Positions 1 to 19,893 of a stretch of 64,000 nucleotides of DNA are shown in pieces. This stretch comes from Escherichia coli (lineage in GTDB: Bacteria; Pseudomonadota; Gammaproteobacteria; Enterobacterales; Enterobacteriaceae): the NCBI RefSeq assembly GCF_048403405.1, contig NZ_CP183129.1. One strand, given 5' to 3'. Within the stretch, counting starts at the first letter, position 1. Each line of letters opens with the position of its first letter. The notes below the pieces were generated by a model. The model had not been told where the DNA came from and did not search any database. It saw only the letters and a program-made list of their open reading frames with translations. The position numbers and the translations under genes are program-made.

Positions 1-96
<96 letters not shown>

Positions 97-170
97 ACTC
101 CAGGCAAGTTAGTTTTAAAAAATGACTCACAGGGACATCACGTCCTCAATTCAACTCGGGAAGAAAAGCA

Positions 171-758: not shown

Positions 759-814
759 TCTCTCTGATGTACCAGCAGGGGTACCCCCCTGCTTTATTCC
801 TGGACGGAATTGTT

Positions 815-1483: not shown

Positions 1484-1508
1484 ATAGCTGTGCAGATGGA
1501 TAACGACA

Positions 1509-4034
1509 ATGCCTTTACGACGGTTCTCCCCAGGACTGAAAGCCCAGTTTGCCTTCGGCATGGTCTTTTTGTTCGTTCAGCCCGATGCCAGCGCTGCTGA
1601 CATAAGTGCGCAGCAAATCGGTGGGGTGATTATTCCGCAGGCCTTCAGTCAGGCGCTTCAGGACGGCATGAGCGTCCCGCTCTATATTCATCTTGCCGGT
1701 AGCCAGGGTCGCCAGGACGATCAGCGAATCGGCAGCGCTTTTATCTGGTTGGATGATGGACAGCTACGCATCCGGAAAATACAGCTGGAAGAGAGTGAAG
1801 ATAACGCCAGTGTCAGCGAACAAACTCGACAGCAGCTGATGGCTCTGGCCAACGCCCCGTTCAATGAGGCCCTTACCATCCCCCTGACTGACAACGCGCA
1901 GCTGGATCTCAGCTTGCGCCAACTGCTGCTGCAGCTGGTGGTCAAGCGCGAAGCGCTGGGCACCGTACTACGCTCACGTAGCGAAGACATCGGGCAGTCC
2001 AGTGTTAACACCCTCAGCAGTAATCTGAGCTATAACTTCGGCGTCTATAACAACCAGTTGCGTAACGGCGGGAGCAACACATCCAGCTATCTGTCGCTGA
2101 ATAACGTTACTGCGCTGCGCGAACATCACGTGGTGCTCGACGGCTCACTGTACGGGATTGGTAGCGGTCAACAGGACAGTGAATTATATAAAGCGATGTA
2201 TGAACGCGATTTTGCTGGTCACCGATTTGCCGGTGGAATGCTCGACACCTGGAACTTGCAGTCCTTAGGGCCGATGACCGCCATTTCAGCAGGGAAGATT
2301 TACGGCCTTTCCTGGGGAAACCAGGCCAGCTCCACCATCTTCGACAGCAGCCAGTCAGCCACGCCAGTGATCGCCTTTTTACCGGCGGCGGGCGAAGTAC
2401 ATCTCACCCGTGATGGGCGGCTACTAAGCGTTCAGAACTTCACCATGGGCAATCATGAAGTGGATACCCGGGGTCTACCGTACGGTATTTACGATGTGGA
2501 AGTTGAGGTGATCGTTAACGGTCGCGTGATCAGCAAACGCACTCAACGGGTCAATAAGCTGTTTAGCCGGGGGCGCGGCGTCGGTGCACCACTGGCGTGG
2601 CAGATATGGGGTGGTAGCTTTCATATGGATCGCTGGTCGGAAAACGGGAAAAAGACGCGACCAGCTAAAGAGAGTTGGCTGGCAGGTGCCTCGACCTCCG
2701 GCTCACTGAGTACGCTTAGCTGGGCGGCAACGGGATATGGATACGATAATCAGGCGGTGGGTGAAACCCGTCTGACGCTGCCGCTTGGGGGAGCGATCAA
2801 CGTTAACCTGCAAAATATGCTGGCCAGTGACAGCTCATGGAGCAACATCGCCAGCATCAGCGCCACTCTACCGGGAGGCTTTAGTTCGCTGTGGGTTAAC
2901 CAGGAAAAAACCCGCATTGGCAATCAATTGCGACGTAGCGATGCCGACAACCGTGCAATCGGCGGCACACTCAACCTGAACTCACTGTGGTCGAAGCTGG
3001 GCACATTCAGCATCAGCTACAATGATGACCGCCGTTACAACAGCCATTATTACACGGCAGATTACTATCAAAATGTCTACAGCGGTCCCTTTGGTTCGCT
3101 TGGCCTGCGGGCCGGTATTCAGCGCTATAACAACGGCGACAGCAGCGCCAATACAGGGAAATATATCGCTCTCGATCTCTCGCTACCACTGGGCAACTGG
3201 TTTAGCGCAGGGATGACCCATCAAAACGGCTACACCATGGCAAACCTGTCAGCACGCAAACAGTTTGATGAAGGAACCATTCGCACTGTTGGTGCCAATC
3301 TGTCACGAGCCATCTCCGGCGATACCGGTGATGACAAAACCCTCAGCGGTGGGGCGTATGCACAGTTCGACGCTCGTTACGCCAGCGGAACGCTGAACGT
3401 CAATAGCGCGGCGGACGGCTACATCAATACCAATTTGACCGCCAACGGCAGCGTCGGCTGGCAAGGTAAAAACATCGCTGCCAGCGGGCGGACCGATGGC
3501 AATGCTGGGGTGATATTCGACACTGGCCTGGAGAACGATGGTCAGATCAGCGCCAAAATCAACGGGCGGATTTTCCCGCTTAACGGCAAGCGTAACTATC
3601 TCCCGCTCTCTCCCTATGGAAGATATGAGGTGGAGTTACAGAACAGCAAAAACTCACTCGACAGTTACGATATCGTCAGCGGTCGCAAAAGCCATCTGAC
3701 TCTCTATCCAGGCAATGTCGCTGTCATTGAGCCAGAGGTGAAGCAGATGGTTACCGTCTCCGGTCGTATCCGTGCGGAAGACGGCACACTGCTGGCTAAC
3801 GCACGGATTAACAACCATATCGGCCGAACCCGAACCGATGAAAACGGCGAGTTTGTCATGGACGTGGACAAGAAATACCCCACTATCGATTTTCGCTACA
3901 GTGGCAATAAAACCTGCGAAGTGGCACTGGAACTCAACCAGGCGCGCGGTGCCGTCTGGGTCGGTGATGTGGTCTGCAGCGGCCTCTCATCGTGGGCGGC
4001 GGTGACGCAGACAGGAGAAGAGAATGAGAGTTAA
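1509..4034 (+). CDS. ecpC: Ecp pilus outer-membrane usher
   Basis: 841-aa ORF with signal peptide; size and position typical of a fimbrial usher. Confidence 0.9.
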
Positions 4035-5667
4035 CCTACTGATAGCGATGATAATCGTTGCGCTAATCTGGCCTGCAACCGCGCTCAGAGCGGCAGTGAG
4101 CAAAACAACCTGGGCGGATGCACCGGCACGCGAGTTTGTGTTTGTCGAAAACAACTCAGACGACAACTTTTTCGTCACTCCTGGCGGGGCGCTGGATCCG
4201 CGCCTGACCGGTGCCAACCGCTGGACCGGTTTAAAATACAATGGTTCAGGAACCATCTATCAGCAAAGTCTCGGCTACATTGATAACGGTTACAACACCG
4301 GCCTTTATACCAACTGGAAGTTTGATATGTGGCTGGAAAATTCACCAGTTTCATCTCCTTTAACTGGCTTGCGCTGCATCAACTGGTACGCAGGGTGTAA
4401 TATGACCACCAGTCTTATCCTGCCGCAAACCACCGACGCCAGTGGATTTTATGGCGCGACGGTGACCAGCGGCGGCGCGAAGTGGATGCACGGCATGTTG
4501 TCAGACGCGTTTTACCAGTATCTGCAACAAATGCCCGTCGGCAGCAGCTTTACAATGACCATCAATGCCTGCCAGACCTCTGTGAACTATGACGCCAGTA
4601 GCGGCGCACGCTGTAAGGATCAGGCCTCCGGCAACTGGTATGTTCGCAACGTCACCCATACGAAAGCAGCAAATCTGCGGTTGATAAATACCCACTCGCT
4701 GGCGGAAGTATTTATCAACAGCGACGGAGTACCGACTCTGGGCGAAGGGAACGCCGACTGCCGGACGCAAACCATCGGCAGCCGTTCAGGATTAAGTTGT
4801 AAGATGGTTAACTATACCCTGCAAACAAACGGACTCAGCAACACCTCAATCCATATATTCCCGGCGATCGCCAACTCGTCGTTAGCCTCGGCCGTCGGGG
4901 CGTACGATATGCAGTTCAGTCTGAATGGCAGTTCATGGAAACCGGTGAGCAATACTGCCTATTACTACACCTTCAACGAGATGAAGAGCGCAGACTCGAT
5001 CTATGTTTTCTTCTCGAGCAACTTCTTTAAACAGATGGTGAACCTCGGGATCAGCGATATCAACACCAAAGATCTATTCAACTTTCGCTTTCAGAACACC
5101 ACATCACCGGAGTCTGGCTGGTATGAATTTTCTACCTCCAACACGCTGATTATCAAACCCCGTGATTTCAGCATCAGTATTATCTCCGATGAATATACTC
5201 AGACACCGTCGCGGGAGGGATATGTCGGCAGCGGCGAGTCGGCACTCGATTTCGGCTATATCGTAACCACCAGCGGTAAAACAGCTGCCGACGAAGTGCT
5301 GATCAAGGTGACCGGACCCGCGCAGGTGATTGGCGGGCGCTCCTATTGTGTCTTCAGCTCCGATGACGGTAAGGCGAAAGTACCGTTCCCGGCGACGCTT
5401 TCCTTTATTACCCGCAACGGAGCTACAAAAACCTACGATGCCGGGTGCGATGATAGCTGGCGGGATATGACCGATGCGCTGTGGCTGACCACACCGTGGA
5501 CTGATATCTCTGGCGAAGTGGGGCAGATGGATAAGACCACAGTCAAATTTTCGATTCCAATGGATAACGCCATTTCGCTGCGTACGGTAGATGATAACGG
5601 CTGGTTTGGCGAAGTCAGCGCTTCAGGAGAAATTCATGTTCAGGCGACGTGGCGTAACATTAACTAA
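4024..5667 (+). CDS. ecpD: Ecp pilus tip adhesin subunit
   Basis: 547-aa secreted protein, overlaps ecpC end; operon position. Confidence 0.88.
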
Positions 5668-6346
5668 GGCCCTGCTGACAGCGGTCTGTATGCTGGCGGC
5701 ACCTTTGACACAGGCGATTTCGGTCGGCAATCTGACATTTTCGCTGCCGTCCGAGACTGACTTTGTCAGCAAACGTGTAGTGAATAACAACAAAAGCGCA
5801 CGGATATACCGTATTGCCATCAGTGCTATCGATAGCCCGGGCAGCAGTGAATTGCGCACCCGACCGGTGGATGGTGAACTGCTTTTCGCCCCCCGCCAGC
5901 TGGCGTTGCAGGCTGGTGAGAGCGAGTATTTTAAATTTTACTATCATGGTCCACGGGATAACCGCGAGCGCTACTACCGGGTCTCATTTCGCGAGGTCCC
6001 CACTCGCAACCAGACAAGACGCAGCCCAACCGGCGGCGAGGTTAGCACGGAGCCGGTGGTGGTGATGGTTACCATTCTGGTAGTACGACCACGTCAGGTT
6101 CAATTTAAATGGTCCTTCGACCAGGTGACAGGAACGGTAAGTAACACTGGCAACACATGGTTTAAGCTACTGATTAAGCCAGGATGTGATTCGACCGAAG
6201 AGGAAGGCGATGCCTGGTACCTACGTCCGGGAGACGTTGTTCATCAGCCTGAGTTACGTCAGCCGGGGAATCATTATCTGGTCTATAACGACAAATTCAT
6301 TAAGATTAGCGATTCCTGTCCGGCTAAGCCCCCTTCGGCGGACTAA
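5636..6346 (+). CDS. ecpE: Ecp pilus second chaperone
   Basis: Start at [14 protein letters not shown]; 236 aa; shares motifs with EcpB ([19 protein letters not shown] vs [20 protein letters not shown]). Confidence 0.85.
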
Positions 6347-6658
6347 GACTTATCCATCGGTCAAGGGAAGAACTCCACCTCAGAGACTCAAAAATCGTTT
6401 AAATAATGTGGAAGCGATCGTCAATGTCACCTGTAACGATGGGCTTTCTCATATGTACACCATAGTGTTCAGGAGACGCGGAAAGGTACCAGGCAGCCTG
6501 CTAACGAGTGGTTTATTCACGAATTAGTACGTAAAATCGGTAACGGCTGGAAATCATTCAATACTCACACTATCGAAAGTTCCCCAGCCAACCGCGGTAC
6601 GTTCTTACATACGATGTACCGCTGTTCTCTTTACGATTTATAGCTGTACTGGTGAATT

Positions 6659-6988
6659 ATGAGCAATCTGAATCCATGCATGACGTGTGGTGCCTGTTGT
6701 GCATTTTTCCGCGTCTCTTTTTACTGGGCCGAAGCCGACGATGCTGGCGGTACCATTCCCGCCAGGCTCACTGAACAAATATCCCCTTTTCACCGATGCA
6801 TGAGCGGTACCAATCAGAAAAACCCCCGATGTATTGCCCTTGCAGGAACACCGGGCAAAAATGCCTGCTGCACGATATATAAAAATCGATCGTCCACGTG
6901 CAGAGAATTCGCCATGTCTGGTGAGAACGGAGTCGTCAATGAGGCTTGCAATCGTGCAAGAGCTAAATACGGGCTGACACCGTTATAA
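6659..6988 (+). CDS. ykgJ: YkgJ-family putative zinc/iron-sulfur cluster protein (UPF0153)
   Basis: 109-aa ORF with [11 protein letters not shown] and further Cys motifs. Confidence 0.85.
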
Positions 6989-7011
6989 ATATGCAATAAT
7001 TAATTGCACTG

Positions 7012-7044
7012 CCCCGCCAGCTATAATCGCGGGGCTTCGTTTTT
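7012..7044 (+). terminator. Putative rho-independent terminator downstream of ykgJ
   Basis: ccccgc ... gcgggg stem followed by cttcgttttt. Confidence 0.4.
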
Positions 7045-7195
7045 CAGGGATAACAAAACCCGAAACTTCTTCCATCTGCCAGCAACAATGCCTCTTCCTC
7101 TATAGTGTTCTCCGGATCTACAGCATCCTGAAGTAGCGCGATGTACTCACGGGCTATCTGCTTCAGAAAGTAAAAAGCAATGTTTTTAACCTATA

Positions 7196-7223
7196 AAAAT
7201 GGCGCTGCATTTGCGCCATTTTT
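7196..7223. terminator. Putative bidirectional terminator between ykgJ and yagU
   Basis: aaaatggcgc-tgcattt-gcgccatttt perfect hairpin flanked by A and T runs on both sides. Confidence 0.5.
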
Positions 7224-7236
7224 ATTATTCAATGCA

Positions 7237-7851
7237 TTATCTGTTTGAGCCTAAAGGGATCTCAGGGTCTGGCTCATGAGTAATTCTGTTTCGTAAATCT
7301 CTGCGAATAATTTCAATGGACCAGAACCAGACTAAATGTCCAAAAATTTCAGAAACATTCTCATACCACGGGAGATCAAACAGAGGTGGCGTCAGTCCCA
7401 TGAGAGGGAATGAAATCATATGAACAAAAAGTTGGGCTAAAGCACCTGCCAGTAAGCCCTGCCAGAGTTTAATTTTTGGAAATACTTCAGCGACCACACA
7501 ATAACCGACAGCAAACACTATCGAAAAGATAATGTGCGTAACACCAACCCAGTTAAAGACATGCCCGGCAAAGGTATAAACAGCCGCATTGGGATCTGTC
7601 AGCCCCAACCAGTCTCGAAGAAAAATATACGGAGGATTGAGAAAATTACGGGAGCAATCAATTTGCCCAGCAGCCCTGATTAATGATTCCGGGCCACACG
7701 CTGCATTAAACATATCCACCGGGCTACGTGGCGGCAATGGAACTTCAGCCCCCCACTTCACAAATGCGGAAACAACGCCAGCAATCAGCCCAATGAATGC
7801 AGCAAGACCATAACGTCTGCGGTTCGGTGGAGTTTGTTCAAATATATTCAT
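7237..7851 (-). CDS. yagU: Inner membrane protein YagU (DUF1440)
   Basis: 204-aa [33 protein letters not shown], multi-TM. Confidence 0.9.
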
Positions 7852-8257
7852 ATCTACCCTGCTTGTACCATTATGTTATACACCTCTTCAGGAGTATTCA
7901 TAAAATAAGACAAATGTAAAGAACTGTATTGTTTTGTATAACAAGATAGTTTCCTAATCGCCAATGAATATAAGCACCATCATTTCTCCCTATTTTTATG
8001 TTAGAAGTGACAAAGATTTGTAGGGTGATGCAGAGCTGACAATCACAGGTTTCCTTATCGGTTTTTGCATCGTACAACTAAAGCAATAAACGAGCTCCCG
8101 TCATCGGCGAATATGAATTAATTAGCCGGGCTCATAGCTGCATTCGCGTTTTAAGAATAATCCTCCTGCTCTCACCGACTATGCTTAACGTTTAAAAAAG
8201 CATCAGCACTCTCGCAACGCTCTCTTATTTTCCCCTTTAGAATACCGGAGGCCTGGT

Positions 8258-8947
8258 ATGAGCAACCAAGGCGAATACCCCGAAGATAATCGGGTTGGGA
8301 AGCACGAGCCGCACGATTTTAGTTTGACCCGTCGCGATCTGATTAAAGTCAGCGCCGCAACGGCGGCGACCGCCGTGGTTTATCCTCATTCTACGCTTGC
8401 AGCAAGCGTTCCGGCAGCTACACCCGCGCCAGAGATAATGCCCCTGACACTTAAGGTGAACGGCAAAACCGAGCAGTTGGACGTTGATACCCGAACCACG
8501 CTACTGGACGCTTTGCGTGAAAATCTGCATCTGATCGGTACCAAGAAAGGTTGCGATCACGGGCAGTGCGGAGCCTGTACCGTGCTGGTCAATGGTCGCA
8601 GGCTTAATGCCTGCCTGACGCTTGCAGTCATGCATCAGGGGGCCGAGATCACCACCATTGAAGGCCTGGGTTCACCAGAGAATCTTCACCCCATGCAGGC
8701 GGCCTTTATCAAGCATGATGGCTTCCAGTGCGGCTACTGCACCTCCGGGCAAATTTGCTCATCAGTAGCGGTGCTAAAAGAGATTCAGGACGGCATTCCC
8801 AGTCACGTCACGGTCGATTTGGTTTCCCCTCCAGAAAGAACGGCCGATGAGATCCGTGAACGTATGAGCGGCAACATCTGTCGCTGTGGAGCATACGCTA
8901 ACATCCTTGCCGCCATTGAAGACGCTGCGGGGGAGATAAAATCATGA
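8258..8947 (+). CDS. paoA: Periplasmic aldehyde oxidoreductase, 2Fe-2S subunit PaoA (Tat signal)
   Basis: Twin-arginine motif LTRRDLIKV; two Cys clusters ([11 protein letters not shown] and CRCGAY) typical of 2Fe-2S ferredoxin subunits. Confidence 0.95.
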
Positions 8948-9900
8948 AGGCGTTTACCTATGAACGAGTGAACACCCCGGCCGAGGCGGCACTTAGCGCT
9001 CAGCGCGTACCCGGCGCAAAATTTATCGCTGGCGGGACCAATCTGCTGGACCTGATGAAGCTGGAAATTGAAACGCCAACCCACCTTATCGATGTGAACG
9101 GGCTCGGGCTCGATAAGATTGAAGTGACCGACGCGGGTGGGCTGCGCATCGGCGCACTGGTACGGAACACCGACCTGGCAGCTCACGAGCGCGTGCGTCG
9201 TGATTACGCGGTACTCTCCCGCGCCCTGCTCGCTGGCGCGTCTGGTCAGTTACGTAATCAGGCAACCACCGCAGGTAATCTGCTCCAGCGCACGCGCTGC
9301 CCCTATTTTTACGACACCAATCAGCCCTGCAATAAGCGCCTGCCCGGGAGCGGCTGCGCGGCACTTGAAGGCTTTAGCCGTCAGCACGCGGTGGTAGGCG
9401 TAAGCGAAGCCTGCATTGCCACCCATCCGAGCGATATGGCGGTCGCAATGCGGTTGCTGGATGCGGTGGTGGAAACCATCACGCCGGAGGGAAAGACTCG
9501 CAGTATCACACTGGCTGATTTTTATCACCCTCCAGGAAAAACGCCGCACATTGAAACCGCCCTGCTTCCCGGTGAGCTTATCGTTGCGGTGACGTTACCT
9601 CCGCCGCTCGGCGGAAAACATATTTACCGTAAGGTGCGCGATCGCGCCTCCTACGCCTTTGCCCTGGTATCGGTCGCAGCGATTATTCAGCCTAACGGCA
9701 GCGGGCGCGTCGCGCTGGGCGGAGTAGCACATAAGCCCTGGCGCATTGAGGCTGCGGATGCTCAGCTATCCCAGGGGGCGCAGGCCGTGTATGACGCGCT
9801 GTTCGCCAGCGCCCATCCCACCACTGAAAACACCTTTAAACTCCTGTTGGCGAAGCGAACGCTTGCCTCCGTACTGGCTGAAGCGAGGGCACAGGCATGA
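8944..9900 (+). CDS. paoB: Aldehyde oxidoreductase FAD-binding subunit PaoB
   Basis: 318-aa ORF overlapping paoA stop; CO-dehydrogenase flavoprotein-like. Confidence 0.93.
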
Positions 9901-12095
9901 AATTTGATAAACCCGCAGGGGAAAACCCGATTGATCAGCTGAAGGTTGTCGGTCGTCCCCATGACCGTATCGACGGACCGCTGAAAACTACCGGCACGGC
10001 ACGCTACGCCTACGAATGGCATGAAGAAGCCCCCAACGCCGCCTATGGTTATATCGTCGGTTCCGCCATTGCCAAAGGATGCCTCACCGCCCTCGATACG
10101 GACGCCGCGCAAAAAGCGCCGGGCGTACTGGCTGTCATTACCGCCAGTAACGCCGGGGCACTCGGCAAAGGCGACAAAAACACCGCCAGGCTGTTAGGCG
10201 GCCCCACTATTGAGCACTATCATCAGGCCATTGCGCTGGTAGTGGCCGAGACCTTCGAACAGGCACGAGCGGCGGCCTCGCTGGTGCAGGCGCACTATCG
10301 CCGTAATAAAGGAGCTTACTCCCTGGCGGACGAGAAACAGGCCGTCAGTCAGCCGCCGGAAGACACGCCCGATAAAAATGTTGGTGACTTTGACGGGGCT
10401 TTCACCTCCGCTGCGGTGAAGATTGATGCTACCTACACGACCCCGGACCAGAGCCATATGGCGATGGAACCGCATGCCTCGATGGCCGTCTGGGATGGAA
10501 ATAAGCTTACCCTCTGGACCTCAAATCAGATGATTGACTGGTGCCGCACCGATCTGGCAAAAACGCTGAAAGTGCCCGTGGAGAATGTGCGTATTATCTC
10601 CCCGTATATCGGTGGAGGGTTTGGCGGCAAGCTGTTCCTGAGAAGCGATGCGCTGCTGGCGGCCCTCGCCGCCCGTGCGGTGAAACGTCCGGTTAAAGTG
10701 ATGCTCCCCCGCCCCACTATTCCCAATAACACCACGCACCGCCCCGCCACCCTTCAGCACCTGCGTATCGGTGCCGACCAGAGCGGGAAAATCACTGCTA
10801 TCTCACATGAAAGCTGGTCCGGAAACCTGCCCGGCGGCACGCCGGAAACGGCGGTACAGCAAAGCGAATTTCTTTACGCAGGGGCGAATCGTCATACAGG
10901 CCTGCGGCTCGCCACGCTTGATTTGCCGGAAGGGAACGCCATGCGTGCGCCCGGCGAAGCCCCCGGTCTGATGGCGCTCGAAATCGCGATCGACGAACTG
11001 GCGGAAAAAGCGGGCATCGATCCCGTCGAGTTTCGCATCCTGAATGACACTCAGGTTGACCCCGCCGACCCGACGCGCCGCTTCTCTCGCCGTCAGCTTA
11101 TTGAGTGCTTGCGCACCGGAGCGGATAAATTTGGCTGGAAGCAGCGAAACGCCACCCCCGGACAGGTACGCGACGGGGAGTGGCTAGTCGGCCACGGTGT
11201 TGCGGCGGGCTTTCGCAATAATCTGCTGGAAAAATCGGGTGCGCGGGTTCACCTGGAGCAAAACGGCACCGTTACCGTGGAAACGGACATGACCGATATT
11301 GGCACTGGCAGCTACACCATTCTGGCCCAGACGGCAGCGGAAATGCTTGGCGTACCGCTGGAGCAGGTTGCGGTTCACCTCGGCGATTCCAGTTTCCCGG
11401 TTTCTGCGGGTTCTGGTGGACAATGGGGCGCGAATACCTCCACCTCCGGCGTTTACGCCGCCTGTGTGAAACTTCGCGAAATGATTGCCTCGGCAGTCGG
11501 GTTTGATCCTGAGCAGTCGCAGTTTGCCGACGGCAAGATTACCAACGATACCCGAAGCGCCACGCTACATGAGGCCACCGCAGGCGGCAGACTGACAGCG
11601 GAAGAGAGCATTGAATTCGGAACAATGAGCAAGGAGTACCAGCAATCGACCTTTGCCGGGCATTTTGTGGAGGTCGGCGTGCATAGCGCGACGGGAGAAG
11701 TTCGGGTCCGGCGTATGCTCGCCGTGTGCGCAGCGGGGCGCATTCTGAATCCGAAAACTGCACGCAGCCAGGTCATTGGCGCAATGACTATGGGCATGGG
11801 CGCGGCACTGATGGAGGAGCTGGCGGTAGATGACCGTTTGGGCTACTTCGTTAATCACGATATGGCGGGGTATGAGGTGCCGGTCCATGCGGATATCCCA
11901 AAACAGGAGGTGATTTTCCTGGATGATACCGACCCCATCTCCTCCCCGATGAAGGCCAAAGGTGTCGGTGAGCTGGGCCTGTGCGGCGTGAGCGCGGCTA
12001 TCGCCAACGCGGTGTATAACGCCACCGGTATTCGGGTACGGGATTATCCCATCACTCTGGATAAGCTGCTCGATAAACTGCCGGATGTGGTTTAA
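9897..12095 (+). CDS. paoC: Aldehyde oxidoreductase molybdopterin-binding subunit PaoC
   Basis: 732-aa ORF; xanthine dehydrogenase large-subunit-like. Confidence 0.95.
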
Positions 12096-12104
12096 GGAGG
12101 AACA

Positions 12105-13061
12105 ATGTCATACTCGCTTTTTGACAAAGACGAGCACTGGCATAAGCCAGAGCAGGCGTTTCTCACCGATGACCACCGGACCATTCTGCGCTTCGCCGTA
12201 GAGGCGCTAATGTCCGGTAAAGGAGCGGTGCTGGTGACGCTGGTGGAGATACGCGGCGGCGCGGCGCGCCCGCTCGGGGCGCAGATGGTGGTGCGCGAAG
12301 ATGGTCGTTACTGCGGTTTTGTCTCTGGCGGCTGCGTGGAGGCCGCTGCCGCTTTTGAAGCGCTGGAGATGATGGGCTCAGGCCGCGATCGCGAAATTCG
12401 CTATGGTGAAGGTTCGCCGTGGTTTGACATCGTTCTGCCCTGCGGCGGTGGGATCACGCTGACGCTCCATAAACTACGCTCGGCACAGCCTCTGCTCGCC
12501 GTGCTGAACCGCCTGGAACAGAGAAAACCGGCGGGTCTGCGCTACGATCCGCAAGCTCAATCGCTGGTGTGCCTGCCCACGCAAACCCGGACGGGCTGGA
12601 ATCTCAATGGCTTTGAGGTGGGGTTCAGACCATGCGTCAGTCTGATGATTTACGGACGTTCTCTTGAGGCGCAGGCAACCGCGAGTCTTGCAGCAGCCAC
12701 AGGCTATGACAGCCATATCTTCGATCTTTTTCCGGCCTCAGCCAGCGCTCAGATCGATACCGATACGGCGGTCATTTTGCTGTGCCATGATCTCAACCGG
12801 GAGCTGCCAGTGTTGCAGGCCGCGCGAGAGGCAAAACCCTTTTATCTCGGCGCATTGGGCAGCTATCGAACCCACACTTTACGTCTGCAAAAGCTCCACG
12901 AGCTGGGATGGTCCAGGGAGGAGACAGCGCAAATCCGGGCACCCGTCGGGATATTCCCCAAAGCCCGGGATGCGCATACTCTGGCACTCTCCGTGCTGGC
13001 AGAAGTCGCCTCTGTACGTCTCCATCAGGAGGAGGATTCATGCCTGCCCCCGTCGTCCTGA
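12105..13061 (+). CDS. paoD: XdhC-like molybdenum cofactor insertion chaperone PaoD
   Basis: 318-aa ORF immediately after paoC. Confidence 0.9.
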   Translation: MSYSLFDKDEHWHKPEQAFLTDDHRTILRFAVEALMSGKGAVLVTLVEIRGGAARPLGAQMVVREDGRYCGFVSGGCVEAAAAFEALEMMGSGRDREIRYGEGSPWFDIVLPCGGGITLTLHKLRSAQPLLAVLNRLEQRKPAGLRYDPQAQSLVCLPTQTRTGWNLNGFEVGFRPCVSLMIYGRSLEAQATASLAAATGYDSHIFDLFPASASAQIDTDTAVILLCHDLNRELPVLQAAREAKPFYLGALGSYRTHTLRLQKLHELGWSREETAQIRAPVGIFPKARDAHTLALSVLAEVASVRLHQEEDSCLPPSS

Positions 13062-13125
13062 TCCTTGCGGCCGGGCGTGGAGAGCGCTTTCTCGCCTCCG
13101 GGGGAAATACCCATAAATTAAGAGA
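13040..13125 (+). pseudogene. Possible 5' remnant of a MobA/MocA-like nucleotidyltransferase gene
   Basis: ATG overlapping paoD stop encodes MPAPVVLILAAGRGERFLASGGNTHKL, resembling the N-terminal NTP-transferase motif; similarity is lost after about 28 codons. Confidence 0.3.
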
Positions 13126-13240
13126 AAAATCTGCAGTAGCCGTTTTAGAAAATCACCTAAATCGTTTAAAAGAGCACCCAACCCATAGTGGGCGCTCATC
13201 GCCTTGTGTAACTTATTCAGCAACGCGCGCCCTCGCCGGA

Positions 13241-14434
13241 CTAAAGCGCACCGGCCTTCTGGCGTGCGGTAACAAAGGTCAGTACGCCAGCGCAAAGGAG
13301 CAGCACGCTACTCATAGCAAACGTGCTCTGCCAGCCAAGGCGGTCAAATACGATGCCTCCTGCTGTTGATCCAAGGGCGATGGAGAGCTGAATCACCGCG
13401 ACCATGAGCCCGCCTCCGGCTTCGGCGTTGTCAGGCAACGTACGCGCAATCCATGTCCACCATCCGGTTGGCGCGGCGGTGGCCAGCATGCCCCAGAGTC
13501 CTAACAGCAGCGAGACCGTCCAGACGTGATGCCCGGTCAGCATCAGACCGATAGCAATGACGGCCATCAGTCCGGGTATGGCCATCAGCGTGGGGTAGAA
13601 TTTTCTGTTGAGAAATGCCGAAACAACCAGCGTGCCAATAAAACCGGCCACGCCGATAATCAGCAAAATCAACGACAAGCCTAAGGAATTAACCCGTGTC
13701 ACCGACTCCAGAAACGGGCGCACATAGGTGAATAGTGCAAACTGCCCCATGAAAAACAGGCAGCAGGCTATCATGCCGACCACAACCATGCGGCGGCTAA
13801 ATAAGCGGAATACCGCGCCACATGAAGTGTGGCTTTTATTCGCATCCATGCTTGGCAGGCTGATGCACTGCCAGATAAAGGCGACAACCGCGATGGGCAC
13901 CAGGCACAAGAAAGCGCCTCGCCATCCGACCGTAGCCCCCAGATAGCTTCCCAGCGGTGCGGCCACGACCGTCGCCAGCGCATTACCGGCGTTGAAAATT
14001 GCCAGCGCACGCGTGACCTGATGCTGCGGCACCAGACGAATCGCCGTTGCCGCTGACATCGACCAGAATCCGCCAATAGCCACACCAATCATCGCACGAC
14101 CGACCATATACATCAGATAACTGGAAGCCAGCGCAATAATAAGCCCCGATACGGCCATCAGAACCGTCATCCCCAGCAGCAGGAACTTACGATTCATCTT
14201 TCCAGCTAGCGTTGAAAGCGTCAGGCTGGTCAGAACCGCCAGCGCGCCGGAGATAGCAATCCCCTGCCCTGCCAGCCCCTCCGTCACGCCTAAATCGCGG
14301 GTAATCGGCGTGAGCAGGCTGACGGGCATAAATTCAGAAGCAATCAGCACAAACACGCACAGGGTCATGGCAAAAATACCGCCCCAGTATGCGCGCTGAT
14401 GATGAGGTGATAGTGTTTGGCTTAGTGTCGACAT
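13241..14434 (-). CDS. Major facilitator superfamily transporter (12-TM)
   Basis: 397-aa hydrophobic ORF with MFS-like loop motifs. Confidence 0.85.
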   Translation of the reverse strand: MSTLSQTLSPHHQRAYWGGIFAMTLCVFVLIASEFMPVSLLTPITRDLGVTEGLAGQGIAISGALAVLTSLTLSTLAGKMNRKFLLLGMTVLMAVSGLIIALASSYLMYMVGRAMIGVAIGGFWSMSAATAIRLVPQHQVTRALAIFNAGNALATVVAAPLGSYLGATVGWRGAFLCLVPIAVVAFIWQCISLPSMDANKSHTSCGAVFRLFSRRMVVVGMIACCLFFMGQFALFTYVRPFLESVTRVNSLGLSLILLIIGVAGFIGTLVVSAFLNRKFYPTLMAIPGLMAVIAIGLMLTGHHVWTVSLLLGLWGMLATAAPTGWWTWIARTLPDNAEAGGGLMVAVIQLSIALGSTAGGIVFDRLGWQSTFAMSSVLLLCAGVLTFVTARQKAGAL

Positions 14435-14509
14435 AGTGAAATTTCACAAAGATCAGGATAAAAGCCACCAGCCTATGGCCGGTGGCTTTGCATCAATTCA
14501 GGAGAGGTT

Positions 14510-15646
14510 TTATTTCAGTTTGGTCTGGAAAAATTGTTCGAACTTCGCGAAAGGTATTTTTCCGGCCACGTTATCGTACAGGTCCACGTGATTTGCCCCT
14601 GGTACCACCACCAACTCTTTGTCTTTACTGCCAACCGCCTTGTAAGCATCTTCAGCAAAATAGCGTGAATGTGCTTTCTCACCGGTCACAATCAGCGTCG
14701 GAATGGTGATTTCACTGGCGTAGCTCAACAGCGGCATATTCATAAATGACAGCGGCATCGTTGCCGTCCACGCCCCGGTAGAGTTAACGGAACGTTCGTG
14801 GAAGCCGCGCGGCATGCGATAGTAGTCAAAGAACTCTTTCAGTACCGGATGAGGATTTGCCGGCAGCGTTTCTGGCAGAATGCGCTCGCCCGCACTGACC
14901 TTGCCGTTGCTGTCGACATTAATATCATGACCACCGTGAGCGAACGTTCCGCTCTGCGCATCCTTCCAGCGCTGTTCATTCAGATATTGCAGAACGGCAC
15001 GACGGTCGGCGGTAGAATAACGGTCTTTGCCATCCCCCACACCATGACCCATCGCCCGGCTCATGTCATACATCACGCTGGTAGCTACCGCTTTAACGCG
15101 GGTATCCATCGCCACGTCGTTCAGCGCCATGCCGCCCCAGCCACAAATACCGAGCAGCCCGATACGGTTGCGATCTACCTCTTTTTGCAGCCCTAAGAAA
15201 TCCACCGCCGCGCTGAAATCTTCAGTGTTGATATCCGGTGAGGCGACGTTTCGCGGATAGCCGCCGCTTTCCCCGGTGTAAGAAGGATCGAACGCCAGGG
15301 TAACAAACCCTCGTTCCGCCAGCGTCTGCGCATACAAGCCGCTGGATTGCTCTTTCACCGCGCCAAATGGCCCACTGACCGCAATCGCCGCCAGCTTGCG
15401 ATCGCCACGGTCTTTAGGCAGGTAAAGATCGCCCACTAAGGTGATGCCATATCGGTTCGGGAACGAGACTTTACGGTGATCGACTTTCTGGCTCTCGGCG
15501 AACGTTTTATCCCATTTATCTGTCATGGACACAGGGGCATTAGGATTGGTTGAATCAGCATAACTCATTGTCGTGACTCCACTTAATGATGCGAAAAGCA
15601 GCATGGTCGGCATCGCGGTTTTTAGCGTGCGGGTGAAGGCTTTCAT
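14510..15646 (-). CDS. Secreted alpha/beta-hydrolase-fold protein (putative Cys/Ser hydrolase)
   Basis: N-terminal signal peptide; nucleophile-elbow-like GICGWGG motif; ends VVVPGANHVDLYD. Confidence 0.7.
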   Translation of the reverse strand: MKAFTRTLKTAMPTMLLFASLSGVTTMSYADSTNPNAPVSMTDKWDKTFAESQKVDHRKVSFPNRYGITLVGDLYLPKDRGDRKLAAIAVSGPFGAVKEQSSGLYAQTLAERGFVTLAFDPSYTGESGGYPRNVASPDINTEDFSAAVDFLGLQKEVDRNRIGLLGICGWGGMALNDVAMDTRVKAVATSVMYDMSRAMGHGVGDGKDRYSTADRRAVLQYLNEQRWKDAQSGTFAHGGHDINVDSNGKVSAGERILPETLPANPHPVLKEFFDYYRMPRGFHERSVNSTGAWTATMPLSFMNMPLLSYASEITIPTLIVTGEKAHSRYFAEDAYKAVGSKDKELVVVPGANHVDLYDNVAGKIPFAKFEQFFQTKLK

Positions 15647-15832
15647 AAAAATCCCCATAAAAAACAACAGAGAGATACAGGTTTCCGACGGACAACGCTG
15701 CGGTGCTTTACTTTGATGGGGTCATTATAGTGAGCAGAATTAGTGCTGATTAGGGGGCGATTAATGCTAAGATTAATACCATATTGTTATAAATTAATGT
15801 GGAGATTGCCGGCATGAAGGGGGGATGTTTCA

Positions 15833-16717
15833 ATGGCGAAAAGGGAGAACTACAACGAGCTGTACCTGTTTATGCAGGTGGTGCGAGAAGGCAGCTTTAC
15901 CGCAGCGGCTCAGCGGCTGGGTCTTGCTCAGTCAGGAGTCAGCCGTTCTGTTCGCGAGCTTGAAGAAAGGCTGGGTGTCCAGCTGCTAGTGCGCACCACG
16001 CGTAAACTGTCGCTGACACAAGCAGGCGAGCAGCTCTACCAGAAGACGGCATCTGGATTTGAAATGTTAGATCTTGGGCTTGCCACACTGGCGCACTATC
16101 GAGAGACGCCCTCCGGCACGGTGCGTATCAATGCCAGCCAGCACGCGATTGATAAATGCCTGCTGCCAAAGCTGGCGGTATTTAAACAGCGATATCCTGA
16201 TATCCGGCTTGAACTGATAAATGAGAGCCGGTTCGTCGATATCATCGAGGAAAGATTCGATGCAGGTGTCCGCCTGGGGCCTGAAGTCGGCCAGGGTATG
16301 GTCGCGGTACGCATCACGCCCGATATGGAGATGGCAATTGTGGGGACTCCGGAACATTTTCGTCGCTATGGTTTTCCGCAAACCCCGGCGGATTTAAAGG
16401 CGCATCCCTGTATCGCCTATCAGTTTGCCGACGGCAGCGTATACCAGTGGGAACTCAATCAGGATGATAAAAAAATCACTCATCGCCCTGAAGGGCAATG
16501 GGCCTTATCCGACAGCTATATGGAAGCAGAAGCCGCCCGGCTGGGCCTCGGATTGGCCTATGTTCCTGTTGAACTGGTCGCGGATGATTTAGAACACGGT
16601 AAGCTTATCAGGGTGTTGCAGCGTTACAGCCTGCGAATGGAGGGATTGTTTCTCTATTACCCTCATCGCAACGTCTCCCCCGCCCTGCGGATGGTCATTG
16701 ATACATTGAAAATCTGA
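15833..16717 (+). CDS. LysR-family transcriptional regulator
   Basis: 294 aa; N-terminal HTH FTAAAQRLGLAQSGVSRSVRELEERLGVQLLVRTTRKLSLTQAG; divergent from the hydrolase-MFS pair. Confidence 0.88.
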   Translation: MAKRENYNELYLFMQVVREGSFTAAAQRLGLAQSGVSRSVRELEERLGVQLLVRTTRKLSLTQAGEQLYQKTASGFEMLDLGLATLAHYRETPSGTVRINASQHAIDKCLLPKLAVFKQRYPDIRLELINESRFVDIIEERFDAGVRLGPEVGQGMVAVRITPDMEMAIVGTPEHFRRYGFPQTPADLKAHPCIAYQFADGSVYQWELNQDDKKITHRPEGQWALSDSYMEAEAARLGLGLAYVPVELVADDLEHGKLIRVLQRYSLRMEGLFLYYPHRNVSPALRMVIDTLKI

Positions 16718-16789
16718 ACGTTAACAACGACCGACTCTTTACTGTGCAATATTGTGTCAGGTAGTCCCTCTGCGTTCAATTCCAGGGTT

Positions 16790-17210
16790 TGTACTGACCC
16801 CAAAAAGTTGGACAGTTAAACACGAGGCATATAGGTCTGATTCCGATATTCAATTGGAGTCAGACCTTTTAATTTCAGGCTAATTCTTCTGCTGTTGTAG
16901 TATTCAATATATTCCGTAACAGCATCCTTCAGTTCGCTTATATTACTGAACTCATCAAGATAAAAACACTCCGACTTTAAGGTTCCAAAGAAACACTCCA
17001 CCACAGCATTATCCAGACAATTGCCTTTTCTGGACATGCTTTGTTTAATACCATGTTCTTTAAGGATATTTTGATATCTTCTCATACGATACTGCCATCC
17101 CTGGTCAGAGTGCAGAACAGGATGCTCGTGAGGATTAAGCTTTTTGAATGCCTGATCGAGCATATTCTCAACCATGTTCATCACTGGTCTTTCCGAAAGG
17201 CTGTAAGAAA
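16790..17210 (-). mobile_element. IS3-family (IS150-group-like) element, right part: orfB C-terminal fragment plus terminal repeat
   Basis: Minus-strand translation ...[47 protein letters not shown]...; end sequence tgtactgaccccaaaaagttggac; abuts IS26 at 17211. Confidence 0.8.
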
Positions 17211-18030
17211 GGCACTGTTGCAAATAGTCGGTGGTGATAAACTTATCATCCCCTTTTGCTGATGGAGCTGCACATGAACCCATTCAAAGGCCGGCATTTT
17301 CAGCGTGACATCATTCTGTGGGCCGTACGCTGGTACTGCAAATACGGCATCAGTTACCGTGAGCTGCAGGAGATGCTGGCTGAACGCGGAGTGAATGTCG
17401 ATCACTCCACGATTTACCGCTGGGTTCAGCGTTATGCGCCTGAAATGGAAAAACGGCTGCGCTGGTACTGGCGTAACCCTTCCGATCTTTGCCCGTGGCA
17501 CATGGATGAAACCTACGTGAAGGTCAATGGCCGCTGGGCGTATCTGTACCGGGCCGTCGACAGCCGGGGCCGCACTGTCGATTTTTATCTCTCCTCCCGT
17601 CGTAACAGCAAAGCTGCATACCGGTTTCTGGGTAAAATCCTCAACAACGTGAAGAAGTGGCAGATCCCACGATTCATCAACACGGATAAAGCGCCCGCCT
17701 ATGGTCGCGCGCTTGCTCTGCTCAAACGCGAAGGCCGGTGCCCGTCTGACGTTGAACACCGACAGATTAAGTACCGGAACAACGTGATTGAATGCGATCA
17801 TGGCAAACTGAAACGGATAATCAACGCCACGCTGGGATTTAAATCCATGAAGACGGCTTACGCCACCATCAAAGGTATTGAGGTGATGCGTGCACTACGC
17901 AAAGGCCAGGCCTCAGCATTTTATTATGGTGATCCCCTGGGCGAAATGCGCCTGGTAAGCAGAGTTTTTGAAATGTAAGGCCTTTGAATAAGACAAAAGG
18001 CTGCCTCATCGCTAACTTTGCAACAGTGCC
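17211..18030 (+). mobile_element. IS26 copy 1 (820 bp, complete)
   Basis: Terminal inverted repeats ggcactgttgcaaa at 17211 and its reverse complement ending at 18030; internal Tnp26 ORF. Confidence 0.95.
17271..17978 (+). CDS. tnpA: IS26 transposase Tnp26 (IS6 family)
   Basis: [57 protein letters not shown]... Confidence 0.95.
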   Translation, partial: HMNPFKGRHFQRDIILWAVRWYCKYGISYRELQEMLAERGVNVDHSTIYRWVQRYAPEMEKRLRWYWRNPSDLCPWHMDETYVKVNGRWAYLYRAVDSRGRTVDFYLSSRRNSKAAYRFLGKILNNVKKWQIPRFINTDKAPAYGRALALLKREGRCPSDVEHRQIKYRNNVIECDHGKLKRIINATLGFKSMKTAYATIKGIEVMRALRKGQASAFYYGDPLGEMRLVSRVFEM

Positions 18031-18743
18031 CTTGCTGGTAGTGGTTCTGTAGCCAGGTGGCTGAAGGTCTATGAAGAGCGCGGAGAAGCTGGTTTACGCG
18101 CGCTCAAGATTGGCACCAAAAGAAACATTGCAATATCAGTTGATCCAGAAAAAGCGGCATCAGCATTGGAGCTGTCAAAAGACCGACGCATTGAGGATCT
18201 TGAAAGGCAAGTTCGATTTCTTGAAACGCGGCTTATGTATCTAAAAAAGCTGAAAGCCTTAGCTCATCCCACGAAAAAGTAAAAGTACTCAACGAGCTAA
18301 GGCAGTTTTATCCTCTTGATGAGCTTCTCAGGGCTGCGGAGATACCGCGCAGTACGTTTTATTACCATCTAAAGGCTCTCAGCAAGCCTGACAAGTATGC
18401 GGACGTTAAAAAGCGTATTGGTGAGATTTATCACGAGAATAGAGGCCGATACGGATACCGTAGGGTAACGCTGTCTCTTCATCGAGAAGGGAAACAGATT
18501 AACCATAAAGCTGTTCAGCGCCTGATGGGAACCCTCTCACTTAAAGCAGCGATTAAGGTCAAGCGATACCGCTCTTACAGAGGAGAGGTAGGGCAAACCG
18601 CCCCTAATGTTCTCCAAAGAGATTTCAAGGCTACGCGGCCAAACGAGAAGTGGGTTACCGATGTTACTGAATTTGCAGTCAATGGGCGCAAGCTGTATTT
18701 GTCTCCAGTAATAGATCTCTTCAACAACGAAGTTATTTCTTAC
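18031..18743 (+). mobile_element. IS3-family element, internal part: orfA 3' region, A6G slippery site, orfB N-terminal fragment
   Basis: A-AAA-AAG frameshift heptamer at 18243-18249; orfB N-terminus ...[36 protein letters not shown], which continues in frame with the minus-strand fragment at 16816-17210. Confidence 0.8.
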
Positions 18744-19563
18744 GGCACTGTTGCAAAGTTAGCGATGAGGCAGCCTTTTGTCTTATTCAAAGGCCTTACA
18801 TTTCAAAAACTCTGCTTACCAGGCGCATTTCGCCCAGGGGATCACCATAATAAAATGCTGAGGCCTGGCCTTTGCGTAGTGCACGCATCACCTCAATACC
18901 TTTGATGGTGGCGTAAGCCGTCTTCATGGATTTAAATCCCAGCGTGGCGTTGATTATCCGTTTCAGTTTGCCATGATCGCATTCAATCACGTTGTTCCGG
19001 TACTTAATCTGTCGGTGTTCAACGTCAGACGGGCACCGGCCTTCGCGTTTGAGCAGAGCAAGCGCGCGACCATAGGCGGGCGCTTTATCCGTGTTGATGA
19101 ATCGTGGGATCTGCCACTTCTTCACGTTGTTGAGGATTTTACCCAGAAACCGGTATGCAGCTTTGCTGTTACGACGGGAGGAGAGATAAAAATCGACAGT
19201 GCGGCCCCGGCTGTCGACGGCCCGGTACAGATACGCCCAGCGGCCATTGACCTTCACGTAGGTTTCATCCATGTGCCACGGGCAAAGATCGGAAGGGTTA
19301 CGCCAGTACCAGCGCAGCCGTTTTTCCATTTCAGGCGCATAACGCTGAACCCAGCGGTAAATCGTGGAGTGATCGACATTCACTCCGCGTTCAGCCAGCA
19401 TCTCCTGCAGCTCACGGTAACTGATGCCGTATTTGCAGTACCAGCGTACGGCCCACAGAATGATGTCACGCTGAAAATGCCGGCCTTTGAATGGGTTCAT
19501 GTGCAGCTCCATCAGCAAAAGGGGATGATAAGTTTATCACCACCGACTATTTGCAACAGTGCC
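18744..19563 (-). mobile_element. IS26 copy 2 (820 bp, complete, inverted relative to copy 1)
   Basis: Identical Tnp26 ORF on minus strand; inverted repeats at 18744 and 19563. Confidence 0.95.
18796..19503 (-). CDS. tnpA: IS26 transposase Tnp26
   Basis: Protein identical to the copy at 17271-17978. Confidence 0.95.
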
Positions 19564-19803
19564 GATGATTTCAGATTTCATGACTTGAGACACACCTGGG
19601 CAAGTTGGCTGGTTCAAGCCGGTGTCCCGTTGTCAGTGTTACAGGAAATGGGAGGCTGGGAGTCTATCGAAATGGTTCGTCGATATGCTCACCTCGCACC
19701 TAATCACCTTACCGAACACGCACGGCAAATAGACTCGATCCTGAACCCATCGGTCCCAAATTTGTCCCAGTCAAAAAATAAGGAAGGTACTAATGATGTG
19801 TAA
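19564..19803 (+). pseudogene. P4-like tyrosine integrase, C-terminal about 80 codons (5' part replaced by IS26)
   Basis: ...[47 protein letters not shown]... carries the catalytic H-x-x-R and Y region; stop lies 14 bp from the tRNA-Thr 3' end. Confidence 0.8.
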
Positions 19804-19817
19804 CTTATTGATTTAAA

Positions 19818-19893
19818 TGGTGCCGATAATAGGAGTCGAACCTACGACCTTCGCATTACGAATGCGCTGCTCTACCAACTGAGCTATATCGGC
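19818..19893 (-). tRNA. thrW: tRNA-Thr (anticodon CGU)
   Basis: Reverse complement reads GCCGATATAGCTCAGTTGGTAGAGCAGCGCATTCGTAATGCGAAGGTCGTAGGTTCGACTCCTATTATCGGCACCA. Confidence 0.95.

Follow-up and report, generated by a model that had tools for sequence, protein, structure and literature searches.

IS26 is an insertion sequence associated with resistance. For its inverting mode of transposition, He et al. 2015 (mBio; PMC4471558) published a criterion, namely inverted IS26 copies together with an inverted 8-mer that lies at the IRL of one copy and at the IRR of the other, and Li et al. 2023 (PMC10501869) saw this trans signature experimentally on a chromosome. A review of the IS6 family (Varani et al. 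2021, PMC7986276) describes both the inverted-8-mer signature and the IS26 adjacent deletion, which results from intramolecular transposition in cis. Next to AbGRI3 in Acinetobacter baumannii, Blackwell et al. 2017 (PMC5400096) described a chromosomal segment bracketed by inverted IS26 copies. Both the phenomenon and the elements treated below are already known, and the IS26 and IS150 sequences concerned match known copies. Here we analyze a locus in a 64-kb stretch of an Escherichia coli chromosome (the window, meaning the whole stretch analyzed), where two inverted IS26 copies divide an IS150 remnant at a site that lacks DNA present in near-identical genomes.

RESULTS

Two identical IS26 copies in opposite orientation enclose a segment of IS150

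The original prediction placed two complete 820-bp IS26 copies in opposite orientation 713 bp apart, and both the coordinates and the complementarity proved exact to the base (Table 1), the two 820-nt arms being 100% complementary. Each copy is identical at 820 of 820 positions to the annotated IS26 of plasmids pHK02-1 and pXH990_1. The 14-nt terminal repeat GGCACTGTTGCAAA occurs exactly four times in the window, against 0.04 occurrences expected, and all four lie at the IS ends. Both inner junctions bring an IRR against IS150, and both outer junctions an IRL against the flank. The encoded Tnp26, a single DDE transposase of 234 aa, scored 278 bits against the NCBIfam IS6 family model NF033587 (cut-off, 125). 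Codon 184 reads AAC, and the copies therefore represent the G184N variant, one residue off the standard Tnp26, for which enhanced activity has been reported.

TABLE 1 Features of the IS26-IS150 locus and its flanks (positions in the window)
Feature	Coordinates	Strand	Remarks
IS150 3' part, nt 1023-1443	16790..17210	-	C-terminal part of orfB and right terminal inverted repeat
8-bp target copy A, GTAAGAAA	17203..17210	.	Adjoins IRL of IS26 copy 1; IS150 nt 1023-1030, reverse-complemented
IS26 copy 1	17211..18030	+	820 bp; IRL 17211-17224, tnp26 17274-17978, IRR 18017-18030
Inverted segment, IS150 nt 318-1030	18031..18743	+	3' part of orfA, frameshift region, N-terminal part of orfB; IS26 IRR adjoins both ends
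8-bp target copy B, TTTCTTAC	18736..18743	.	Adjoins IRR of IS26 copy 2
IS26 copy 2	18744..19563	-	820 bp; exact reverse complement of copy 1; tnp26 18796-19500, minus strand
thrW-prophage tyrosine integrase, last 240 nt	19564..19803	+	79 codons and stop; cut by IRL of IS26 copy 2
tRNA-Thr(CGT), thrW	19818..19893	-	Intact; tRNA used for attachment by the lost prophage; proA and proB come next
Junction J2			IRR to IS150 nt 318; TTTGCAACAGTGCC / CTTGCTGGTAGTGG
Junction J4			IRL to integrase nt 880; TTTGCAACAGTGCC / GATGATTTCAGATT

As had been proposed, the 8-bp flanks at 17203-17210 and 18736-18743 are exact reverse complements; for one pair, such a match has a chance of 4^-8, or 1.5e-5. Coincidence was excluded when the complete IS150 (1443 bp) was aligned to the window. 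Its nt 318-1030 correspond to 18031-18743 on the plus strand and its nt 1023-1443 to 17210-16790 on the minus strand, so that exactly 8 nt, nt 1023-1030, are present twice, with one copy at each new junction. Since the two IS150 pieces overlap by precisely the 8-mer, the match is not due to chance. The remaining flank pair, CTTGCTGG at 18031-18038 and GATGATTT at 19564-19571, are not reverse complements. This mismatch was missing from the original prediction, as was the absence of IS150 nt 1-317 described below.

Re-inversion restores a contiguous but incomplete IS150

The 3' part of IS150 matches complete IS150 copies at all of its 421 nt and joins chromosomal DNA 73 nt downstream of the stop of a LysR-family gene (16717), the site that is occupied by IS150 in E. 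coli FDAARGOS_1289. The orfB frame is indeed split, one half ending on the plus strand at 18743 and the remainder lying on the minus strand from 17210. When 18031-18743 was inverted and one 8-mer removed, the rebuilt IS150 comprised 1126 nt and aligned gap-free to complete IS150 copies. It carries 3 mismatches relative to the IS150 at the matching chromosomal site in FDAARGOS_1289 and a single one, with both halves spanned, relative to a common chromosomal variant; many chromosomal IS150 matched it in a single piece at 99.9%, and 3,346 records covered at least 80% of the query. The rebuilt OrfB scored 349 bits against the NCBIfam IS3 transposase model NF033516 (cut-off, 160). Of the contiguous orfAB expected upon re-inversion, the contiguity was thus borne out but the completeness was not: full orfAB is not restorable because nt 1-317, with the left repeat and the beginning of orfA, are missing and were found nowhere in the 64-kb window. 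The IS150 is a truncated, split remnant and not a complete element with both terminal repeats, a full orfA, and a 3-bp target duplication.

We also considered the insertion of a ready-made IS26-bounded compound transposon at this site. It was rejected on the grounds that the inner fragment continues precisely into the outer part of IS150, the two overlapping by the 8 nt.

About 46.6 kb next to thrW is missing relative to a near-identical genome

The window is collinear with E. coli TUM1226, showing 5 mismatches and 1 gap in about 61 kb, except that the IS26 structure stands in place of 46,628 bp. The missing DNA consists of the thrW prophage and an island remnant, and the 5' end of IS150, the island, and the prophage were all absent when looked for elsewhere in the window. 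This loss of about 46.6 kb had not been part of the original prediction. The lost island remnant carried the defence system AbiE. On the thrW side, the integrase is broken at codon 294 of 372, and its remnant matches, with 100% identity, the 3' end of the integrase of TUM1226 (1119 nt, WP_001132557). The remnant gave weak tyrosine-recombinase C-terminal matches in NCBIfam and is only 72 to 75% identical to an older integrase remnant.

Searches for relatives, an ancestor, and the junctions

Across 5,426 complete E. coli genomes, every match to the present 4.6-kb structure fell short of 80% coverage, so that neither it nor its flipped form is represented there. A single-IS26 ancestor built in silico was found in none of these genomes either; its best match (67%) was FDAARGOS_1289, where IS150 lies at the matching site without IS26. 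The junctions were also searched separately. Neither J2 nor J4 was found outside the window, and the contiguous matches to J1 were near-misses only. J3 (161 nt, IS150 ending in TTTCTTAC and joined to IRR) is 100% identical in pXH990_1, p1_STEC384, and CP060110, which are IncHI2-type plasmids. Exact-sequence look-up of the four junction-spanning ORFs in public assemblies recorded no sister isolate or flipped form. Strain NN5, where this integrase is likewise interrupted by an IS26, was rejected as a relative: its junction lies elsewhere and its deletion, running from tauC to the integrase, is different, and NN5 therefore represents an independent event.

The identity of J3 raised the idea that the junction of IS150 with IS26 arrived ready-made from an IncHI2-type plasmid, by recombination within IS150. 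Mapping of SNPs led us to reject such an import, which we regard as highly improbable: the plasmid IS150 is another variant, distinguished by 8 SNPs in the N-part and by 3 in the C-part, and at the SNPs nearest to the junction, 131 bp and 33 bp from it, the window has the non-plasmid allele. Moreover, J1, the partner junction, is missing from those plasmids, in which the junction of the C-part lies 14 bp away, and the rebuilt IS150, taken over both halves, is one mismatch from a common chromosomal variant.

Among the matches listed, IS26 occupies exactly the same position in the same orientation in the IS150 of the window and in the IS150 variant of the IncHI2-type plasmids; in a related plasmid, IS26 has a separate 8-bp duplication at a distance of 4 bp, and a further IS26 junction is found 14 bp off. 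Tnp26 is generally regarded as having little target specificity. From these positions, the region around nt 1019-1037 of IS150 orfB might be a preferred IS26 target, a suggestion that we consider doubtful; if true, it would point to a sequence- or structure-directed target choice by Tnp26.

A proposed origin by deletion and inversion

The original prediction interpreted the locus as the footprint of an intramolecular replicative IS26 transposition in inverse orientation. Our data support this interpretation, as the geometry fits that described in PMC4471558 and PMC10501869 and re-inversion restores IS150. Identical inverted IS copies surround a segment, the inverted 8-mers lie at the IRL of copy 1 and the IRR of copy 2, and re-inversion minus one 8-mer yields an uninterrupted target, as in a trans footprint. 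In addition, each IS26 copy has one "new" junction, marked by the 8-mer, and one "old" junction, at IS150 nt 318 or at the integrase, matching a one-step model.

In the origin that we propose, the starting chromosome would have been nearly identical to that of TUM1226, with IS150 just downstream of the LysR-family gene and with a prophage of about 38 kb and an island remnant of about 8.5 kb between the IS150 site and thrW. A single IS26 (G184N) would have come to sit with IS150 nt 318 on one side and the final 240 nt of the prophage integrase on the other, and IS150 nt 1-317 and the approximately 46.6 kb of island and prophage would have been lost upon its arrival or later, most simply through an adjacent deletion by intramolecular transposition in cis. 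This IS26 would then have attacked the 8-bp GTAAGAAA on the opposite strand, 705 bp off in IS150 orfB, by intramolecular replicative transposition in trans. As the Shapiro intermediate was replicated, a second, inverted IS26 would have arisen and the 705-bp segment would have flipped, and the 8-bp target would have been doubled as an inverted pair, one at the IRL of copy 1 and the other at the IRR of copy 2. A single event suffices to convert the single-IS26 state into the present structure. That CTTGCTGG and GATGATTT are unrelated would be expected if this IS26 had produced a deletion beforehand. From the present anatomy we infer the cis deletion, the replicative route, and the sequence of events; this sequence of events has no direct witness, because no single-IS26 ancestor was found and J2 and J4 are unique to the window. 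We hold the whole scenario, a single IS26 after deletion followed by a trans inversion inside IS150, with moderate confidence.

The same sequence could have been reached in a different order, which we consider unlikely. IS26 would have entered IS150 orfB first, generating direct GTAAGAAA repeats, and would then have transposed in trans into orfA, with CTTGCTGG at nt 318-325; the segment would flip, and the first duplication would become the inverted pair. In the last step, the IRL of copy 2 would have deleted outward as far as the integrase, removing IS150 nt 1-325 together with the island and the prophage, either in a cis event or by recombination with another IS26, and the second CTTGCTGG would have been lost. 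This order produces the exact observed sequence in an equal number of events from an IS26-free ancestor, and GTAAGAAA or positions 4 to 14 bp off were hit by IS26 independently in plasmid IS150, making it a plausible primary entry site. However, a favoured site would be equally attractive for intramolecular attack, the partner of CTTGCTGG must have been lost, and no intermediate was found in the genome and junction searches.

The inversion signature is also not unique to the replicative route, as it is common to that route and to a RecA-mediated flip of IS150::IS26 beside a second inverted IS26. Because both IRR ends face inward, a RecA flip or an arbitrary orientation chosen in assembly would give the same sequence. 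In the former case, an IS150::IS26 with direct 8-bp repeats and a second, opposite IS26 705 bp off, present already or arriving later, would have recombined through their 820-bp inverted copies and flipped the 713-bp segment, and the population may hold both orientations. Perfect inverted repeats of 820 bp are good recombination substrates, and the un-flipped form is a legitimate one, an IS150::IS26 with a direct duplication. There is also a precedent, in which PCR revealed both orientations of a 3.1-kb piece of chromosome flanked by inverted IS26 copies, and homologous recombination or IS26 was considered as the cause (PMC5400096). Nevertheless, this route requires an independent intermolecular insertion (cointegrate and resolution) within 705 bp of an IS26 in a genome of about 5 Mb, hence more events than the one-step route, and the un-flipped form, which corresponds to about 84% of the 4.6-kb query, is absent from the 5,426 complete genomes, where no record reached 80%. 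To us it is about as improbable as the different order.

In the latter case, the true structure would be un-flipped, and the 713-bp segment would owe its orientation to an arbitrary choice by the assembler. Any junction sequence of less than about 820 bp reads the same either way, and the orientation of the segment rests on reads that span a whole IS26, as shorter reads cannot fix it. The unbroken course of the window over 64 kb, with both IS26 copies included, suggests that long reads supported it, and we consider such an artifact very unlikely. One-step replicative inversion by a single IS26 remains our preferred reading.

DISCUSSION

The locus is a clean but ordinary IS26 scar with little import beyond the strain. 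At one chromosomal site, it displays three standard IS26 outcomes: entry, adjacent deletion, and local inversion with self-duplication, the deletion and the replicative inversion being our reading of the anatomy. It documents an IS26-bounded loss of the thrW prophage and of the AbiE-carrying island remnant, and it shows that the more active G184N IS26 has gained a foothold in the chromosome, where two copies are now present. Inverted IS26 copies can mobilise the intervening DNA and seed further rearrangements. The unique J2 and J4 mark the lineage of this clone. Short reads do not set the orientation of short segments between inverted IS26 copies, and assemblies of such regions need care.

Compared with the adjacent deletions reviewed by Varani et al. 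(PMC7986276), an IS26 end here likewise adjoins truncated genes without a flanking duplication, and the intervening 46.6 kb is missing. The deletion is deduced here from relatives, and an identical scar would result if two direct IS26 copies had recombined. The IS26 inversion truncating mgrB in Klebsiella pneumoniae (PMC10501869) spanned 1.1 Mb, was selected, and was seen directly with a known parent, whereas here the inversion covers 0.7 kb and is deduced from its footprint; no phenotype is evident, because the target was already a transposase gene. The 3.1-kb segment next to AbGRI3 (PMC5400096) was found in both orientations by PCR, and one assembled orientation is seen here; the two loci are alike in having a short segment bracketed by inverted IS26 after a duplication, with adjacent deletions nearby. 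In the clinical plasmid pKPN-068 (PMC4471558), the inverted segment is about 30 kb long, whereas ours measures 705 bp, is chromosomal, lies beside a loss of about 46.6 kb, and has an origin that was reconstructed. In both cases, IS26 copies in opposite orientation split another mobile element, ISSwi1 in the plasmid and IS150 here, and re-inversion restores it.

RESULTS

Structure of the inverted IS26 pair

Direct reading and a repeat scan revealed two IS26 copies of 820 nt each, 100% complementary with 713 nt between them, and a script check showed that reverse-complementing copy 2 gives copy 1. Four matches to the 14-nt IS26 terminal repeat were found across the 64 kb of the window against 0.04 expected, all at these four ends, so the window holds no further IS26 copies. 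Of the outer 8-mers, L1 and L2 are mutually reverse-complementary; R1 and R2, compared as a flank pair, are not reverse complements. These data confirmed the arrangement described in the original prediction. The matching 8-mers lie inverted at opposite IS ends: the left terminal repeat (IRL) of copy 1 is beside GTAAGAAA and its right terminal repeat (IRR) beside IS150 nt 318, and the IRR of copy 2 is beside the complementary 8-mer and its IRL beside an integrase remnant. Thus, each IS26 meets the duplicated target at one end and has an unrelated junction at the other.

Features of the IS150/IS26 locus and plasmid positions of shared or nearby junctions
Feature	Position	Strand	Detail
LysR-family gene	15833-16717		before the structure
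IS150 nt 1023-1443	17210-16790	-	0 mismatches vs FDAARGOS_1289 IS150
L1, outer 8-mer of copy 1	17203-17210		GTAAGAAA
IS26 copy 1	17211-18030	+	
tnp26, copy 1	17274-17978		codon 184 = AAC
R1, outer 8-mer of copy 1	18031-18038		CTTGCTGG
IS150 nt 318-1030	18031-18743	+	3 mismatches vs FDAARGOS_1289 IS150
L2, outer 8-mer of copy 2	18736-18743		TTTCTTAC
IS26 copy 2	18744-19563	-	
tnp26, copy 2	18796-19500		codon 184 = AAC
R2, outer 8-mer of copy 2	19564-19571		GATGATTT
Integrase gene remnant	19564-19803		240 nt; after the structure
thrW, tRNA-Thr(CGT)	19818-19893	-	then proA, proB
Plasmid loci L006, L007	about 5000-5900		
pH212-1, locus L008	about 5076-5896		
Plasmid locus L009	about 2855		
pH212-1, locus L010	about 2675		

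The product of each copy is a 234-aa IS6-family transposase (278 bits in NCBIfam) with Asn at residue 184, the G184N variant; each copy differs from the standard IS26 of strain NN5 at 3 nt (459, 613, and 614). Enhanced activity and higher cointegration were reported for G184N IS26 (Pong et al. 2019, as cited in PMC9019673). An ORF antisense to tnp26 (18973-19803, + strand, 276 aa) exits the IRL end and joins the integrase remnant in frame. A similar ORF in NN5 (6751-7965 of locus L002), which starts inside IS26 and overlaps the tnp26 coding sequence, is annotated as an intact "tyrosine-type recombinase/integrase." Annotation of such fusion ORFs is likely an artefact at IS26 junctions.

The interrupted element is IS150

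When the complete 1443-bp IS150 of FDAARGOS_1289 was aligned to the window, the IS3-family element was identified as IS150, present in two pieces that share exactly nt 1023-1030, the 8-mer. When 18031-18743 was followed directly by reverse-complemented 16790-17202, the result was 1126 nt in which orfB is unbroken, with an OrfB scoring 349 bits against the IS3 transposase model and no gaps against complete IS150 copies. The rebuilt element gave single-piece 99.9% matches to many chromosomal copies (at least 80% covered in 3,346 records) and is 1 mismatch from a common chromosomal variant across both halves. One 8-mer pair would match at random with a probability of 4^-8 = 1.5e-5. Since the pieces overlap by exactly the 8-mer and the rebuilt sequence aligns gap-free, the match is a genuine target duplication rather than a coincidence. 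Re-inversion minus one 8-mer had been expected to restore a contiguous orfAB; this held for orfB, but the complete orfAB is not rebuildable because IS150 nt 1-317, by the IS150 alignment, is absent throughout the window.

At 18281 (IS150 nt 568), the window alone carries A, with G in all IS150 copies compared; the change converts the orfA stop from TGA to TAA directly after the A-rich frameshift site and is probably without consequence, the element being already broken.

The IS150 site is empty in near-identical relatives of the window. FDAARGOS_1289, a different lineage whose flank differs by 14 SNPs over 1.8 kb, carries a complete IS150 (4791-6233 of its locus, L001) in the identical site and orientation, without IS26 and with a 3-bp duplication, GTC (4788-4790 and 6234-6236). 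The shared site looks like an independent same-site insertion or recombinational transfer. Next to the right end of IS150 (window 16787-16790), the base is T (GGGTT|TGTACTG); it is C in the empty site of near-identical genomes and in the occupied site of FDAARGOS_1289. Either a single base changed right at the IS boundary or the insertion event was a slightly different one.

About 46.6 kb of chromosomal DNA is missing

The locus lies on the chromosome. Collinearity with E. coli TUM1226 extends over window positions 1-16791 (2 mismatches) and 19564-64000 (3 mismatches, 1 gap), and between these points TUM1226 has 46,628 bp, comprising a ~38-kb prophage, with a 1119-nt integrase adjoining thrW, and a ~8.5-kb island remnant (AraC-family gene, integrase fragments, 3.2-kb ORF, AbiEi/AbiEii, and ykgR fragment). 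Over its 240 nt, the remnant matches the 3′ end of the TUM1226 prophage integrase at 100% identity, versus only 72-75% for the older thrW-adjoining remnant of the prophage-free relatives GN02461 and TUM14771. Thus, the ancestor had the prophage, and ~46.6 kb together with IS150 nt 1-317 is missing here.

NN5 (NZ_CP126348.1, L002 5790-7965) has an independent IS26 elsewhere in this thrW integrase gene, the other end of that IS26 lying in tauC, which implies a separate large IS26-bounded deletion from thrW to the tau operon. IS26 appears to have remodelled the thrW island region repeatedly. Having no connection to IS26, MS 69-1 "plasmid unnamed3" (NZ_CP146678.1, 64,057 bp, circular) repeats the chromosomal ykgR-ecp-pao-LysR-island joined to the thrW prophage, as seen on comparison with the chromosome of that strain, and many of its genes are frameshifted. 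This record may have arisen as an assembly artefact, or from a prophage that was excised or packaged together with flanking DNA.

IS150 orfB junctions on plasmids

The junction of IS150 ending in TTTCTTAC with the IRR of copy 2 (window 18664-18824, 161 nt) is 100% identical on the large IncHI2-type plasmids pXH990_1, p1_STEC384, and CP060110. Import from such a plasmid was rejected: the IS150 on those plasmids belongs to a different variant (8 + 3 SNPs), the window has the non-plasmid allele at the variant positions nearest the junction (131 bp and 33 bp away), these plasmids are without the partner junction (the C-part junction is 14 bp off), and both rebuilt halves fit the chromosomal variant. 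A further IS26/IS150 junction in pXH990_1 lies 14 bp from this position, and 4 bp from it the related plasmid pH212-1 carries a separate IS26 duplication, GAAATAAC. In pH212-1 (NZ_AP038226.1, at about 84.6 kb and 226 kb), the IS150 halves lie ~140 kb apart, each beside a same-orientation IS26, and GAAATAAC is a direct 8-bp repeat at both copies, a hallmark of an unresolved IS26 cointegrate or of the insertion of a very large pseudo-compound transposon. The presence of several independent IS26 junctions inside about 20 bp suggests, as a lead only, that IS150 orfB may be a favoured IS26 target.

DISCUSSION

The original reading, an IS26-mediated inversion, is supported as the most economical. 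One IS26 would have had IS150 nt 318 on one side and the integrase remnant on the other, most easily through an IS26 adjacent deletion that removed about 47 kb; this IS26 would then have attacked GTAAGAAA, 705 bp off, in trans, generating the second copy and flipping the segment. An equally long order of events is possible, in which simple insertion at GTAAGAAA is followed by a trans event into orfA (CTTGCTGG) and an outward deletion removing the partner 8-mer. RecA recombination between the inverted 820-bp copies would also convert the present form into an IS150::IS26 form with direct repeats and back again, and Blackwell et al. 2017 (PMC5400096) detected a 3.1-kb segment between inverted IS26 copies in both orientations. 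Here the central segment lies between two inward-facing IRR ends, so junction sequences shorter than one IS26 are identical in either orientation; the orientation as assembled rests on the underlying reads. Neither the present structure, its flipped form, nor the reconstructed single-IS26 ancestor was found among 5,426 complete E. coli genomes. In junction searches, the copy 1 IRR/IS150 nt 318 and copy 2 IRL/integrase junctions were unique to the window, and exact look-ups of junction-spanning ORFs gave no match. The locus is useful mainly as a clone marker and as a warning for assembly.

For the trans inversion, the pattern of inverted duplicated 8-mers at opposite IS ends is the one described by He et al. 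(PMC4471558). The same outcomes, deletion in cis and inversion in trans, are given in an IS6-family review (PMC7986276), and Li et al. 2023 (PMC10501869) directly observed the trans event on a Klebsiella chromosome. The elements themselves are known and identical to catalogued copies, and this type of rearrangement is already well documented on plasmids and chromosomes.
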